In this document: positions 23,503 through 27,548 of the stretch, piece after piece
How the letters are laid out: each line of letters starts with the position of its first letter
Numbering within the stretch: the stretch's first letter is position 1
Assembly (NCBI GenBank): GCA_964549075.1
Contig: CAZJUB010000017.1
Span: 1 to 33,681 of the forward strand
DNA: 33,681 bases
From: an uncultured archaeon
GTDB lineage: Archaea; Asgardarchaeota; Heimdallarchaeia; Heimdallarchaeales; Heimdallarchaeaceae
Direction: 5' to 3'
Made by a program: the position numbers and the translations under genes
Notes under the pieces: model-generated
Seen by the model: only the letters and a program-made list of their open reading frames with translations
What the model was told of the DNA's origin: nothing
The model's database searches: none

Positions 23503-23931
23503 TTAGATATAACTGCTATTTATGGTTTTTACGGGACCACCACACTCAGGACATTCTCTTTCTGCATCAAGAACTTCATATCCGCAATACTCGCAGAATC
23601 GTGGTTTTTTAGCTCCTGAAGGTTTATATCCTGGTGCATATGGACCGATTTTTGATAGTTTAAAGCTCTGTAGCGAACTCATCATCTTACCTTTTCTCTT
23701 GAAAATCATTATTAATAAAGTTGGTAGTATAACTATCGGAACGTATCCTATAGAACCCCAGAGAATATACAAACCACGCCACATTATGTCAAGATCAGTT
23801 GGAATATCACCAAAAATACCAGAAAATATAAAATAAAACGCAGTAATAAATCCTGCAATCAGGATAAGTATCTCAATTATAAATATAATCTTAAATGGAC
23901 CTTTTTTCTCTTTTTTAGTTTCAGTACTCAT
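23503..23931 (-). CDS. 2-TM membrane protein with C-terminal zinc ribbon
   Basis: Basic N-terminus, two TM helices, CEYCGY-x8-CPECGG. ATG 23931 is preferred over track start 24057. Confidence 0.75.
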   Translation of the reverse strand: MSTETKKEKKGPFKIIFIIEILILIAGFITAFYFIFSGIFGDIPTDLDIMWRGLYILWGSIGYVPIVILPTLLIMIFKRKGKMMSSLQSFKLSKIGPYAPGYKPSGAKKPRFCEYCGYEVLDAERECPECGGPVKTINSSYI

Positions 23932-24066
23932 CTTGATATTTTCTTTTTCAAATAAGTTAATAAAGTTTGAGATGAAATCCGTTGAAAACCTAAATTTATC
24001 TTCTAAGGTTGATTTTGCATCATTTTTATAAGTGTATGAGTATAGTTCAACTCTCAAGGTGAGAAA

Positions 24067-25107
24067 ATGCTAGTTAAGAAGAAATTGCTTAGACTATTTC
24101 TATTAATTTTCTTTGTTTCTGTTCTTACTTTCAGAACAAATAACTATTTTAGAGTTAATTCTTATAATGATCCCATACAGATTCTTGTCATAGTTGATGA
24201 TGATTATGGTGCTAATGTCTTTCCTATTATTCAGCAGTTCGAGGATTTTGGATGGAATGTTACTGTTGCTGGACTTAAAAAAACATTAACTTCTTGTCTC
24301 TTTATTGATTATGACACAATGGAAACTGAAGTTATACTAACTGATATCTCGGATGTTACGGTTTTTGATGCTTTGAGTGTTTTACCCGGAAATTCCCATG
24401 TAAACTTACTCGCTAATCAGACGGCTCTAGATTTAATAAAAGCTGCAGATGAAGCTAATCTTGTTATTAGTGGTTGGTGTAAAGCTGTAAGAGTTCTTGC
24501 TTATGCAGATGTACTTGATGGGCATAATGTTACAGGACATGCTAATTTCATTAGCGACTATGAGGCAGCTGGTGCAACATATGTTGGTGATGATGTATTA
24601 CCAGTAATCGATGATAATATAGTTACAAGTGTACGAAGTACTTATTATAGAAATCAGATCTGTAATGCAATTGGTAAAGCGATAGGAGTCTTTGAATCTA
24701 ATGTTCCAATTTTAAACGATATTACTGTAACTTTTGATTCAACAAATCACAAATTAATCACATTGGCATTTGATGTCTCTGATGAGTCCATCCTTCTCTA
24801 TGTTAAGATAAAAGCATTTGAAGTGAATACAACAACTGGAGAACGATTGTCTCCTTTATACTCTTCTTATTACCAAGTTTTAAATAATCACGAACCAGGG
24901 ATCTGTAGCTGTACGTTTGATATGAAGATTGGTTCATATGAAGTGGATTTTGAGGTTTCTGACATCTATTATAATGTATTCTCCATACAAAATTGTACTT
25001 TTGTAGAGGTATTGGATGAAGTAACAGAAACAGAGTGGAATATGTTTTTGGCAATCAGTTTGCCAATGTTGTGTGTTATAGCATTGATTTATAAAAAAAG
25101 AAGATAA
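24067..25107 (+). CDS. Secreted/membrane-anchored DJ-1/PfpI family protein
   Basis: Signal-like N-terminus, FDALSVLPG, ISGWCKAVRVLA, VIDDNIVTS, beta-rich C-terminal domain, then TM plus KKRR. Confidence 0.8.
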   Translation: MLVKKKLLRLFLLIFFVSVLTFRTNNYFRVNSYNDPIQILVIVDDDYGANVFPIIQQFEDFGWNVTVAGLKKTLTSCLFIDYDTMETEVILTDISDVTVFDALSVLPGNSHVNLLANQTALDLIKAADEANLVISGWCKAVRVLAYADVLDGHNVTGHANFISDYEAAGATYVGDDVLPVIDDNIVTSVRSTYYRNQICNAIGKAIGVFESNVPILNDITVTFDSTNHKLITLAFDVSDESILLYVKIKAFEVNTTTGERLSPLYSSYYQVLNNHEPGICSCTFDMKIGSYEVDFEVSDIYYNVFSIQNCTFVEVLDEVTETEWNMFLAISLPMLCVIALIYKKRR

Positions 25108-25122: not shown

Positions 25123-26334
25123 CTATATTATTTTCATTTTTTTTCCTACATGTTCAAAAATATGTATAGCGTCATCTACAATTTCAGGCGACATTGTAGC
25201 AATATAGGAAGTTCTTATTAGCGCTCTTCCTTTAGGAGTTGCTGGATATACCACTGGATTGGAGAATATACCTAAAGGTTTGTAGTTAAATAATTCTTTA
25301 AAGAATTTCATGGTTTTTCTCGCTTCACCTACAATCAGCGGAATTATGGCTGTACTAGAGTCACCAACATTATAACCGATATCATGAAGATTTTCTCTCA
25401 TATTGTGAGAAATGGATAAAACATGTTTTCTAAGGGATTCATCTTTCTCAATAATATCTAAAACTGCTAAAACTGTGGCGCAATTTGCAGGTGGGGGACT
25501 AGCTGAGAAAATAAAAGCTCTTGCTCTATGTCTTATCCAATTACATATCGCTTCATTTGCTGCCACATACCCTCCTATGGTTGCAAAACTCTTCGAAAAA
25601 GTTCCCATACTAATGCCTACTTTATCTACCAAATTAAAATGAGCTGCAGTTCCTCTACCATGAGGACCCATTACACCAACAGAATGGGCATCATCAAGAT
25701 AGATTCCAGCGTCATAATCTTCTGCTAAATCAACCATTTCTTTAAGTTTTACAATATCCCCCTCCATAGAGAAGACTCCATCTGAGACAATTAATCCTTT
25801 ACCTTTTGGAATCTCTTTCAGACATCTTTCTAAATCCGTCATGTCATTATGGTTATAGATCCTTTTATTGGTTTTATCCATTTTACCTAATCTTATGCCA
25901 TCAATTATAGAGGCATGATTTTGTTGATCAGAAAGAACCCATTCATCTTTTTCTGAAAGCATAGCAGAAATGGCACCTAAATTAGCTTGCATTCCAGTCG
26001 AAAAGACAACACAATCTTCTGTTCCAAAAAACTTGGCTAATCTTTCTTCCAGTTCAACATGAATTTCCATAGTACCATTAAGTAATCGAGAACCAGTTGA
26101 TCCTACTCCATATTCTTCTATAGCTTTTTGTGCTGCTTCCTTAACTTTAGGATGGGAAGTCATCCCCAAATAATTATTACTTCCCAGCATGATTACTTCG
26201 TTAGTATCCATTTGTACTACTGGATTTTGTTCTCCAGAAATTTTGTGAAAATACGGATAGATACCTGTTTTTTTTACTAGAGTGGGTTCACCAAAACGCA
26301 GATATTTATCACATTTTTTATAGAATTGTGCCAT
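25123..26334 (-). CDS. PLP-dependent alpha-oxoamine synthase, serine palmitoyltransferase-like
   Basis: GIYPYF, GSNNYLG, GSRLLNGT, NHASIIDG, FSMEGD, DDAHS, GTFSKS (PLP Lys), IFSAS, PATP, LIRTS. The family call is secure; the SPT specificity is inferred. Confidence 0.85.
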   Translation of the reverse strand: MAQFYKKCDKYLRFGEPTLVKKTGIYPYFHKISGEQNPVVQMDTNEVIMLGSNNYLGMTSHPKVKEAAQKAIEEYGVGSTGSRLLNGTMEIHVELEERLAKFFGTEDCVVFSTGMQANLGAISAMLSEKDEWVLSDQQNHASIIDGIRLGKMDKTNKRIYNHNDMTDLERCLKEIPKGKGLIVSDGVFSMEGDIVKLKEMVDLAEDYDAGIYLDDAHSVGVMGPHGRGTAAHFNLVDKVGISMGTFSKSFATIGGYVAANEAICNWIRHRARAFIFSASPPPANCATVLAVLDIIEKDESLRKHVLSISHNMRENLHDIGYNVGDSSTAIIPLIVGEARKTMKFFKELFNYKPLGIFSNPVVYPATPKGRALIRTSYIATMSPEIVDDAIHIFEHVGKKMKII

Positions 26335-26453
26335 TTTCCTTCTCCTACATTTTTTGAAGTGGTACTATATCTGTAATAGTTGTCATTTTTATAGGTATAA
26401 TATAAGTTTAATCCGGAAACGTTCATGATGAAATTGTCTAAAACTTCTGAAGT

Positions 26454-27275
26454 CTAAGTATCTCTCTTCTTAGGAACGCCATAGTATATTCTAGCAACAA
26501 AACTGTGAATAGTATATGGTAATAATCTCATCAAGATTCCAAAAAACTTGGTATCAGGTCCTCGTGTATATCGCGGTTTTGGTCTTTTAGCTTTAATTGC
26601 TCTTAGTACTGATTTTGCTACTTTCTTTGGTTTTGTTCCTTTTTGTTCCGCTTCATACATTATCTGAACAGCTCTTTGAGCATCTGAATCGTTTTCGTAA
26701 TTATCTGTATATTTTCTGCTAGCATTGAAATCTGTTCTAGTATCTCCTGGTTCTATGAGTGATACTTGAATATTGTCTCTTAACAACTCTATTTTTAGAG
26801 CATCAGAGTAAATTGCAAGTGCTGCTTTACTTGCACTATAAATCCCTTGAAAGGGTAATCCTAATCGTCCACCAAATGTTCCAATATTGATGATTCTGCC
26901 TTTTCCTTGTTTAATCATAGTAGGAACTACTTCTCTAATCATTCTGTGAGCACCAAAAAAATTGGTATCAAAGACATTTTTAACTTCTTCAATACTTGAA
27001 TCTTTAATTGCACCACAAAGTCCATAACCTGCATTATTCACTAAAATATCAATTTGACCTTCCTCTTTCAAAACTTCTTGAACACATTTTTTGATAGAAA
27101 CTTCATCTTGAACATCTAATTGAAGGTTAAGGTAACTTGTCTTTGGAGCACTATCTAGATTCCGAGTCGTACCATAGATTTTGTAACCTTTTTTCATTAA
27201 TAACTCAGCTATAGCAGTTCCTATACCACCTGAAGCACCGGTTAAAAGGACAATTTTAGGTTTCTGTATGCTCAT
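26454..27275 (-). CDS. Classical short-chain dehydrogenase/reductase (candidate 3-ketosphinganine reductase)
   Basis: TGASGGIG, NNAG, YSASK, EPGDTRTDF; co-oriented 119 bp upstream of the SPT-like gene. Confidence 0.88.
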   Translation of the reverse strand: MSIQKPKIVLLTGASGGIGTAIAELLMKKGYKIYGTTRNLDSAPKTSYLNLQLDVQDEVSIKKCVQEVLKEEGQIDILVNNAGYGLCGAIKDSSIEEVKNVFDTNFFGAHRMIREVVPTMIKQGKGRIINIGTFGGRLGLPFQGIYSASKAALAIYSDALKIELLRDNIQVSLIEPGDTRTDFNASRKYTDNYENDSDAQRAVQIMYEAEQKGTKPKKVAKSVLRAIKAKRPKPRYTRGPDTKFFGILMRLLPYTIHSFVARIYYGVPKKRDT

Positions 27276-27355
27276 AATAGAATTATTCTGGCACACTTGA
27301 TTTTAAACTTTACAGATTCTGAAAATATAATGGCTTAAGTGACAAGTTTTTTAAG

Positions 27356-27548
27356 TGAATAAAGGATAGATAGTTTGCCTTAGAGGTGACACAAAGTGTG
27401 GGATCGCGAAATTAACCACTAAAATTAATAGATTTTTGAATGATTTAGAGAAGAATCCTTGTGTTACCAATTTCAAAAAAATGTTTTCAAATGAATATCT
27501 CCTATCCTATTCAACATTGGAGGATTTAATGTGACACATAAGGATTCT
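27356..27548 (+). promoter_or_regulatory. Structured 5' leader of ileS with alternative pairings and an 8-codon uORF
   Basis: 27452-27468 is complementary both to 27385-27396 and to the ileS start region 27531-27548. The uORF at 27396-27422 (GTG, MWDREINH) follows GAGGTGA. Confidence 0.45.

Follow-up and report, generated by a model that had tools for sequence, protein, structure and literature searches.

Can an Asgard archaeon make sphingoid bases? Sphingolipids are usually ascribed to eukaryotes and bacteria, and we know of no sphingosine-like lipid bases from archaea. The question is raised by two adjacent genes on a 33,681-nucleotide stretch of DNA (contig CAZJUB010000017.1, assembly GCA_964549075.1), here called the window, from an uncultured archaeon of the Heimdallarchaeaceae. 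One gene encodes a pyridoxal phosphate (PLP) enzyme, an alpha-oxoamine synthase (AOS) resembling serine palmitoyltransferase (SPT), and the other a classical short-chain dehydrogenase/reductase (SDR). We put at around 60% the probability that the pair is a long-chain-base synthase and a 3-ketoreductase, which together would produce a sphinganine-type amino alcohol from serine and fatty acyl-CoA. The PLP enzyme would condense an amino acid, most likely L-serine, with an acyl thioester of predicted long chain length, with decarboxylation, to give a 3-keto long-chain base. The acyl donor would most likely be acyl-CoA from a FadD-like ligase encoded elsewhere in the genome. The SDR would then reduce the 3-keto group, probably with NADPH as cofactor, to a sphinganine-like amino alcohol.

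The SPT-like enzyme and its neighbouring reductase

The AOS gene (25123..26334, minus strand) encodes 403 amino acids with a PF00155 domain (191 bits, E=3e-56) and is a candidate long-chain-base (3-ketosphinganine-type) synthase. The SDR gene, on the same strand (26454..27275, minus), has a PF00106 domain (157 bits, E=6e-46) and is a candidate NADPH-dependent 3-keto long-chain-base reductase of the KdsR-like type. Given the significance of these Pfam matches, both open reading frames (ORFs) are far beyond chance. The SDR can be read as 273 amino acids from an ATG at 27275 or as 280 from a GTG at 27296 (26454..27296); its orthologues have 273-277 amino acids, a length that fits the ATG start. 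The AOS carries the motifs GIYPYF (residues 24-29), GSRLLNGT (81-88), GTFSKS (244-249, with Lys248), PATP (364-367) and LIRTS (372-376, with Arg374). In the SDR, numbered on the 280-residue form, TGASGGIG, YSASK (Tyr153/Lys157) and PGDTRT (183-188) were found. The original prediction for this DNA had proposed the two ORFs as a sphingoid-base pathway, and both of them, with every motif it quoted, are present in the translations. The strings it used for comparison with KBL, GTLGKA and SVRFICGT, agree with the E. coli KBL row of our alignment; for eukaryotic KDSR it gave PPDTDT as the counterpart of PGDTRT.

All alpha-oxoamine synthases share one fold, and the PLP enzyme has the features of the family: the PF00155 domain, the PLP lysine, the stacking His, the Asp to the pyridine N, the His to O3' and the C-terminal Arg. 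Lys248, His140, Asp214, His217 and Arg374 align with Lys244, His138, Asp210, His213 and the Arg of LIRFS in the SPT of Sphingobacterium multivorum (SmSPT). Among the NCBIfam models, NF047600 (SPT-CFB) ranked first for the AOS with 448.4 bits, followed by TIGR01825 (414), KBL (405) and BioF (367). The PDB ranking was also headed by the Sphingobacterium multivorum SPT (327 bits), with Thermus BioF/KBL at 280, E. coli KBL at 258, the Sphingomonas SPTs at 229-239 and cysteate fatty acyltransferase (CFAT) at 215 bits. A profile built from 13 sequences of the archaeal clade widened the lead of SPT over the Thermus and E. coli enzymes (448 bits versus 361 and 323, respectively), and CFAT reached 274 bits with the same profile. 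Identity to a Parabacteroides SPT is approximately 45%.

The focal AOS was aligned to SmSPT, with the residue roles taken from an excerpt of PMC10196870. The catalytic and PLP-binding residues of SmSPT (His138, Asp210, His213, Thr241, Ser243 and Lys244) are all kept, as are its serine/carboxylate network (Asn52, Gly80-Ser81, Ser185) and its N-terminal acyl wall (Tyr25, Tyr27, Phe28). Within the set selected for testing (Asn52, Gly80-Ser81, Ser185, Thr241, Ser243, Tyr27 and Phe83) the only change is Phe83, which is Leu84 in the archaeal enzyme. Together with this one, the substitutions relative to SmSPT are Ala79 to Thr, Phe83 to Leu, Phe114 to Met and Met271 to Ile. YPYF, GSRxLNGT, GTFSKS and IFSAS are common to the whole SPT-like clade; KBL, BioF and the two AOS paralogues of the genome have other residues in their place. 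Regarding the CFAT-specific positions given in an excerpt of PMC13692747, the focal enzyme has the SPT-type Ser82, Ser142, Ser247 and Ala278, as located by inferred residue offsets and not by direct alignment.

Sequences for phylogenetic analysis were pooled from the 150 best representatives of a 50%-identity library with their close relatives, 80 loci from species genomes (those listed: 79 bacterial and one of Thermoplasmataceae, archaeal synteny being taken from separate genome searches), the Asgard loci and annotated references. The references were the Parabacteroides, Prevotella and Runella SPTs, which pass the NF047600 cut-off of 640 bits with 684, 655 and 733 bits, respectively, the KBL of E. 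coli and Bacillus (the Bacillus gene adjoins tdh), and BioF from bio operons. From 385 domain hits, 97 near-redundant close relatives (among P0001-P0120) were removed, leaving 288 rows for a FastTree analysis. A quick LG+C20 tree was made with 101 rows picked by hand from the 288, and a careful LG+G4 tree with 63 rows chosen from the 101. Alphaproteobacterial, betaproteobacterial and eukaryotic SPT, CFAT and ALAS lie outside the trees and were judged through PDB scores only.

In the careful tree the archaeal clade comprises 18 rows (support 100/98) and is nested in a 45-row SPT-like clade (100/98) together with the Parabacteroides, Prevotella and Runella enzymes; the SPT-like grouping has an SH-aLRT value of 99 in the LG+C20 tree. 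The KBL references and one paralogue of the genome, on contig C1, form a separate clade (100/94), and BioF falls outside. The trees of 288, 101 and 63 rows agree. Profile ranking, PDB ranking, trees and motif table all concur with the earlier claim that the PLP enzyme groups with SPT-type enzymes and not with KBL, BioF or ALAS, the comparison with ALAS being by scores only.

The genome has two further AOS paralogues, with 40-42% identity to the focal AOS, the C1 copy being KBL-like and the C9 copy ambiguous. The C9 paralogue (G000:C9:57617-58756; L002:1498-2712) branches next to the SPT-like clade but not in it (89/67), within a clade that has no labelled member; the SPT, KBL, BioF and TIGR01825 models score it almost alike, and the motifs of SPT and of KBL are both missing from it. 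Ten proteins just outside the SPT-like clade were scanned, and all were ambiguous, none being an alpha- or betaproteobacterial SPT. Some relatives from the representative library (42-46% identity) carry additional, fused domains. P0128 combines a FemAB_like/GNAT domain with AOS, P0134 (1022 amino acids) has FemAB_like, AOS and PilZ, and P0133 and P0145 have PilZ and AOS. P0142 consists of thioesterase, PP-binding, luciferase-like and AOS domains, and P0151 of AMP-binding, PP-binding, luciferase-like and AOS domains. The PilZ fusions hint at a possible c-di-GMP control of an AOS enzyme.

The SDR was matched best by the NCBIfam model PRK06179 (250.9 bits), followed by KdsR (NF049977, 244.9 bits). 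The KdsR model is narrow, having no match over its cut-off in the five genomes or records searched, and the SDR equals or exceeds the best matches in Prevotella (222.9 bits) and in a Paludibacteraceae genome (239.5 bits). In the Prevotella record, the best and sole match of the SDR at E<=1e-15 is the locus ranked first by the KdsR model, and in two Clostridia-type genomes its best match is the SDR adjacent to an AOS gene. It is also a reciprocal best hit both of the Prevotella candidate and of the SDR in a Thermoplasmatota gene cluster described below. A quick tree of 59 SDR rows unites the Asgard SDR clade with the Thermoplasmatota and bacterial AOS-adjacent SDRs (SH-aLRT 89). All AOS-linked SDRs carry LPFQxxYSxxK and PGD, which the other SDRs of the genome do not have. 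Overall, best-match relations to the Prevotella and Clostridia-type proteins and linkage to AOS in three lineages are both found. A Thr/Ser-Arg pair after strand 2 suggests that the SDR uses NADPH. The match to the KdsR model, the reciprocal best hits and the recurrent linkage in Thermoplasmatota and Clostridia-type bacteria make a 3-ketosphinganine reductase a plausible identity for the SDR, as had been proposed. Residue 140 (280-residue numbering) is Thr in a GTFGG or GTLGG context in the focal SDR and in two orthologues (L118, L123), and Ser in the remaining Asgard orthologues that cover this region.

Gene linkage across genomes

An AOS orthologue (E<=1e-120) was identified in 21 of 251 Asgard genomes: 10 of the 20 genomes of the genus, 4 from other genera of the same family, all five of family f6 and 2 of family f2. 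In addition, five f26 genomes hold members of the AOS clade at 45-49% identity. The SDR has orthologues in 17 of the 251 genomes, 12 of them among the 21 AOS-positive ones, against approximately 1.4 expected under independence, a figure that overstates the case because kin genomes are not independent. The order SDR then AOS is present in seven of the ten AOS-positive genomes of the genus (the window, G163, G184, G199, G193, G169 and, partially at a contig edge, G045). Of the other three, G080 is unjudgeable and G097 and G202 have no SDR adjacent to the AOS gene. In two single-contig genomes (G026, G074) the SDR gene lies approximately 2 Mb from the AOS gene, and the SDR match (G026:C1:97228-98022; G074:C1:297186-297980) contains one in-frame TAA, either a break or an over-extended alignment.

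Linkage of the same kinds of gene recurs in other lineages. Among the 80 other loci listed, nine have a related SDR, which in eight lies directly downstream of AOS; these eight form one clade, mostly Clostridia with a Paludibacteraceae member, and KdsR is the top SDR model in all eight. The strongest support is from Thermoplasmatota, in which AOS orthologues were identified in 10 of 301 genomes. The loci with an orthologue at 59-61% identity (L178-L184, in genomes G461, G395, G521, G476, G451, G491 and G518) have the order FadD-like ligase, AOS, KdsR-like SDR in seven of seven, with gaps of 25-90 bp in L182 (L182:2765-11307). The SDR of this cluster scores 304 bits with the KdsR model versus 242 with the next one, and the top nine matches of the ligase are long-chain-fatty-acid-CoA ligases (488 bits). 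After the SDR, two or three tandem hexapeptide-repeat acyltransferases with a transmembrane (TM) anchor are found in six of the seven loci, and a divergent Sulfotransfer_3 gene and an epimerase-family reductase gene adjoin the cluster in five; L178 additionally has an arylsulfotransferase. From its content, the Thermoplasmatota cluster looks like one for an acylated, sulfated long-chain base. An epimerase-family gene resembling the Thermoplasmatota one adjoins the SPT-like gene in at least six bacterial loci.

Two other Heimdall genera (G086, G220) carry, directly upstream of the AOS gene and co-oriented with it, a 600-amino-acid AMP-binding ligase that is the same as that of Thermoplasmatota. 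In G220 the ligase match (G220:C126:1703-3373) contains one TAG and spans two ORFs, which may be a real break or an over-extended alignment. In both genomes, a larger protein with TM segments and a double zinc ribbon is convergent to AOS. In four of the five f6 genomes (L150-L152, L154) a GNAT acetyltransferase of 206-215 amino acids, with only weak PaiA/RimI matches in NCBIfam, is divergent beside AOS; N-acylation of the base is a possible role for it.

It is conceivable, though at somewhat less than even odds, that Asgard archaea (Heimdallarchaeaceae and related families) and sediment Thermoplasmatota make fatty-acid-derived sphingoid lipids by a shared module, in which a FadD-like ligase, an SPT-like enzyme and a KdsR-like SDR would build a sphinganine-type base. 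To this module the Thermoplasmatota would add hexapeptide acyltransferases, a CerR-like reductase and sulfotransferases, leading to an acylated, sulfated, ceramide-like lipid by way of an undescribed type of ceramide synthase.

In the window the AOS and SDR genes form an isolated, co-oriented two-gene unit on the minus strand. They are separated by a spacer of 119 bp (26335..26453, minus strand), which was said to have its own TATA-like sequence; indeed, A/T-rich TATA-like runs can be read there, with GGAGAAGG just 5' of the AOS ATG. Upstream, a divergent intergenic region (27276..27530, no strand assigned) separates the SDR from a large ORF of the size of an isoleucyl-tRNA synthetase. This region has the A/T-rich TTTAAAAT approximately 30 nt upstream of the SDR ATG and is likely the promoter region of the pair, from which the two genes may be co-expressed. 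Downstream and convergent lies a DJ-1/PfpI-domain membrane protein with hydrophobic N- and C-termini (24067-25107, plus strand), between the AOS gene and that of a small membrane protein, c1 (23503..24057, minus strand). The c1 protein has a C-terminal zinc ribbon and only a weak Zn_Ribbon_1 match in Pfam, and its membership in the pathway is uncertain. Within the genus it is a recurrent companion of AOS: it adjoins AOS in L145, L146, L161 and L162 and is near it in L159 and in the window; in L161 and L162 the DJ-1/PfpI-domain protein is missing from the position between AOS and c1. G097 and G202 have the order TrkA_N-domain membrane protein, c1, AOS, with no SDR.

Rest of the proposed pathway and alternative explanations

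The genome has 3.23 Mb in 217 contigs, is 89.7% complete and has a contamination estimate of 3.4%. A supply of acyl-CoA was looked for, as the original prediction had recommended, and an orthologue of the FadD-like ligase was identified on C106 by tblastn and genome search (53-57% identity). This ligase occurs in 26 of the 251 Asgard genomes, in families f1 and f6 only (22 of the 25 other f1 genomes and three of the five f6 genomes), including genomes without AOS. Being found outside the AOS-positive genomes as well, the ligase supports a predicted acyl-CoA supply and not a dedicated pathway in the genus. Five paralogues of the Sulfotransfer_3 protein of the Thermoplasmatota cluster, with 34-38% identity to it near full length, are encoded at C199:171-1229, C13:1936-4130 (two in tandem), C33:1857-2924 and C9:25055-26119. 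No obvious lipid cluster was seen in their neighbourhoods or in that of the ligase. On C33, an ORF of 496 amino acids resembling the major facilitator superfamily (MFS) lies near the sulfotransferase gene, and its opening residues resemble, by eye, those of an Atg22-like MFS protein beside the AOS gene of f6.

A number of observations weigh against a sphinganine-forming pair. The AOS is below the curated equivalog cut-off of its top-ranked model (448.4 versus 640 bits), and the margin of the SPT model over the next one is only 35 bits, compared with at least 100 for bacterial members of the clade. The archaeal clade lies deep in an unresolved polytomy, outside the Bacteroidota SPT subclade; since the branching within the SPT-like clade is unresolved, the archaeal branch is to be regarded as a deep lineage of its own. 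To our knowledge, the biochemically characterised members of the SPT-like clade are from Bacteroidota only. The SDR is also below a curated cut-off, that of KdsR (244.9 versus 400 bits), and the generic oxidoreductase model PRK06179 is ahead of KdsR by 6 bits. The KdsR candidate of Prevotella and an SDR encoded on C10 of the genome fall, in the SDR tree, in a clade other than that of the AOS-linked SDRs, and Thr stands in the focal SDR for the usual catalytic Ser, which most orthologues have. Conservation of the SDR adjacency across Asgard genomes, by which the original prediction had proposed to check the pair, did not extend beyond part of one genus. The order SDR then AOS occurs only in a subclade of the genus at 71% identity or more, orthologous Asgard loci at 57-69% identity lack it, and the five f6 genomes have AOS and no SDR orthologue at E<=1e-50. 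For the predicted product, no N-acyltransferase was recovered from the 89.7% complete genome. A ceramide synthase was sought as had been advised, and neither known type was found: this genome had no match to PF04339, which we take to be the bCerS family, or to PF03798, for TLC-domain ceramide synthases, and a control search with PF04339 was positive in Caulobacter. Searched by tblastn with the f6 GNAT and with the hexapeptide acyltransferases of Thermoplasmatota, the genome gave no homologue of at least 45 bits, so that the genes of a complete ceramide pathway were not recovered there. Finally, in the excerpted text of Ding et al. 2024 (PMC11334938), no archaeal metagenome-assembled genome (MAG) from the Black Sea has an Spt-like protein.

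The origin of the contig and the family of the enzyme bear on any reading of the locus. The nearest labelled enzymes are bacterial, and with the contamination estimate of the bin this could be a sign of a bacterial contig binned with an archaeon, a condition under which the earlier proposal was to be given up. We consider this extremely improbable. The named relatives of the AOS are from Heimdallarchaeota or Heimdallarchaeaceae, those at 70-90% identity being named Heimdallarchaeota; the neighbourhood of the pair, including the flanking genes, is syntenic with other genomes of the genus; AOS orthologues are present in two single-contig genomes of the family; and the G+C content is even along the window, at 31-35%. 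The contig is archaeal. A housekeeping role of the PLP enzyme, as KBL (glycine C-acetyltransferase) or BioF, could be suggested by the JGI annotation of many relatives as "8-amino-7-oxononanoate synthase" and by the bits that both models still reach. However, all NCBIfam models are below their own cut-offs for the AOS, including those of KBL (404.6 versus 460 bits, NF005394) and BioF (366.9 versus 426, TIGR00858). The references of both enzymes are in other clades with support of 100/94 or better, their signature motifs are absent from the focal AOS, and the genome has a separate paralogue in the KBL clade. In the 89.7% complete genome no bioD was found, and the best tdh match had 183 bits against a cut-off of 458. 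A housekeeping KBL or BioF is, therefore, a poor candidate, with a very low probability.

The relation between the two genes, and the substrates of the first, leave more room for other explanations. Chance could have made AOS and SDR neighbours in this genus, with an unrelated role for the AOS and a general oxidoreductase function for the SDR. The 119-bp gap with its own TATA-like sequence, the confinement of the adjacency to a subclade of one genus, the order c4-c1-AOS without SDR in two genomes of the genus and the first rank of PRK06179 would all be in line with this. In contrast, SDRs of the same subfamily are linked to AOS in different gene orders, in seven of seven Thermoplasmatota loci and in at least eight loci of the Clostridia-type clade. 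The AOS-linked SDRs cluster in the tree and share their motifs, and the two genes co-occur far beyond expectation, although kinship inflates that figure. We regard chance adjacency as improbable. Somewhat more weight, still on the unlikely side, can be given to the same chemistry with other substrates, namely Gly, Ala, Thr or cysteate, or a short or medium acyl-CoA, the SDR reducing the resulting ketone. The product could then be an amino alcohol of a non-sphingoid kind, for example a 1-deoxy base, a sulfonolipid base resembling capnine, a metabolite of the aminopropanol type or a signalling molecule. Substrate choice cannot be fixed from sequence, the margin over the KBL-type models is modest, and four SmSPT residues (Ala79, Phe83, Met271 and Phe114) are changed in the focal subclade. 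In addition, excerpts of two papers state that SPTs accept Ala and Gly poorly (PMC10196870) and that the superfamily of the SPTs includes CFATs as one branch (PMC13692747). Against this, the CFAT structures are far below SPT both for the protein (215 versus 327 bits) and for the clade profile (274 versus 448), the CFAT-specific positions, placed by inferred offsets, are of the SPT type, and the Tyr residues of the acyl wall (YPYF) are conserved. The linked ligases match long-chain-fatty-acid-CoA ligases in their top nine matches, and sulfur in the Thermoplasmatota product is suggested by sulfotransferases and not by the use of cysteate. Production of a sphinganine-type amino alcohol from serine and a long-chain acyl-CoA is the reading that we retain.

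Known systems and significance

The closest known system is the SPT of Bacteroidota (Sphingobacterium multivorum, PDB 3A2B/8GUH; NF047600), a soluble enzyme with the same fold, encoded by a single gene of approximately 400 codons. It gives the best PDB and profile matches to the focal AOS, falls in the same clade and has the same PLP, serine-site and acyl-wall residues. In contrast, the focal AOS, whose activity is predicted, scores 448 bits against a cut-off of 640, forms part of a separate deep archaeal branch and differs at four residues. The Caulobacter-type bacterial ceramide pathway, reportedly described by Stankeviciute in 2022, is said to consist of Spt, bCerS and CerR. It shares with the present locus an SPT-like first enzyme, and an epimerase-family reductase gene adjoins the SPT-like gene in some bacterial relatives and in the Thermoplasmatota cluster. 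However, no PF04339 protein was found in the focal genome, and the reductase here is a classical SDR of the KdsR type, which would imply reduction before acylation, as in Bacteroides and eukaryotes. KdsR of B. thetaiotaomicron (BT_0972; NF049977), as presented in an excerpt of PMC9278070, is likewise a classical SDR with TGxxxGxG and YxxxK. The AOS-linked SDRs differ from the Prevotella protein in having PGD in place of PGG, and Thr takes the place of the catalytic Ser in the focal SDR.

The sulfonolipid (capnine) pathway, known to us from excerpts of PMC13692747 and PMC11211663, also uses an AOS and an SDR, the CapB/SulA CFAT and 3-ketocapnine reductase, to make a long-chain amino alcohol; unlike in that pathway, the focal AOS scores much lower with CFAT than with SPT, and its pocket residues, with inferred offsets, are SPT-like. 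KBL/Tdh and BioF are of the same enzyme family and lend their names to the public annotation of relatives, but they form separate clades with other signature motifs, and the genome gave neither a bioD match nor a tdh match above its cut-off. Overall, the pair is probably a variant of a known bacterial pathway, here in a Heimdallarchaeaceae archaeon.

The original prediction had also connected the locus with the origin of eukaryotic membranes. Eukaryotic SPT (SPTLC1/2, LCB1/2) and KDSR share the proposed chemistry, but eukaryotic SPT is a membrane-bound heterodimer. Human SPTLC2 scores 182 bits against the focal AOS, 219 against the Parabacteroides SPT, to which it is nearer, and 192 against E. 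coli KBL. Scored with the profile of the archaeal clade, SPTLC2 has 231 bits, plant LCB2a 230 and yeast LCB2 218.5, compared with 323 for KBL, 263 for ALAS and 251 for BioF. With this profile eukaryotic SPT is the lowest of the AOS classes except CqsA; the comparison is by pairwise and profile scores, the trees having no eukaryotic row. Because eukaryotic SPTs score below KBL, ALAS and BioF, there is no sign, as far as scores and not a tree can tell, that the archaeal clade was the source of eukaryotic SPT, and that part of the prediction found no backing.

Our literature search found no paper linking serine palmitoyltransferase to Asgard archaea, and nothing on an archaeal SPT. According to a 2026 phylogenomic study in Nature (PMC12872458), the sphingolipid metabolism of eukaryotes is, overall, associated with Asgard archaea, the excerpt available not naming SPT, and a 2026 preprint gives GBA2, SGPL1 and SGPP1 as Asgard-sister genes. 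For the association claimed in that excerpt of PMC12872458, the present locus offers a concrete, clonable gene set. The locus is also of geochemical relevance: sedimentary sphingolipids are currently ascribed to bacteria according to an excerpt of PMC12619533. If archaea of both phyla do make sphingoid lipids by the shared module, no earlier sphingolipid pathway would be known from Archaea, and relatives of the eukaryotic host lineage would have a class of lipids that is not isoprenoid. Some archaea would then build amino-alcohol lipids from fatty acids, which would bear on the "lipid divide" and on the lipids of the Asgard host of eukaryogenesis.

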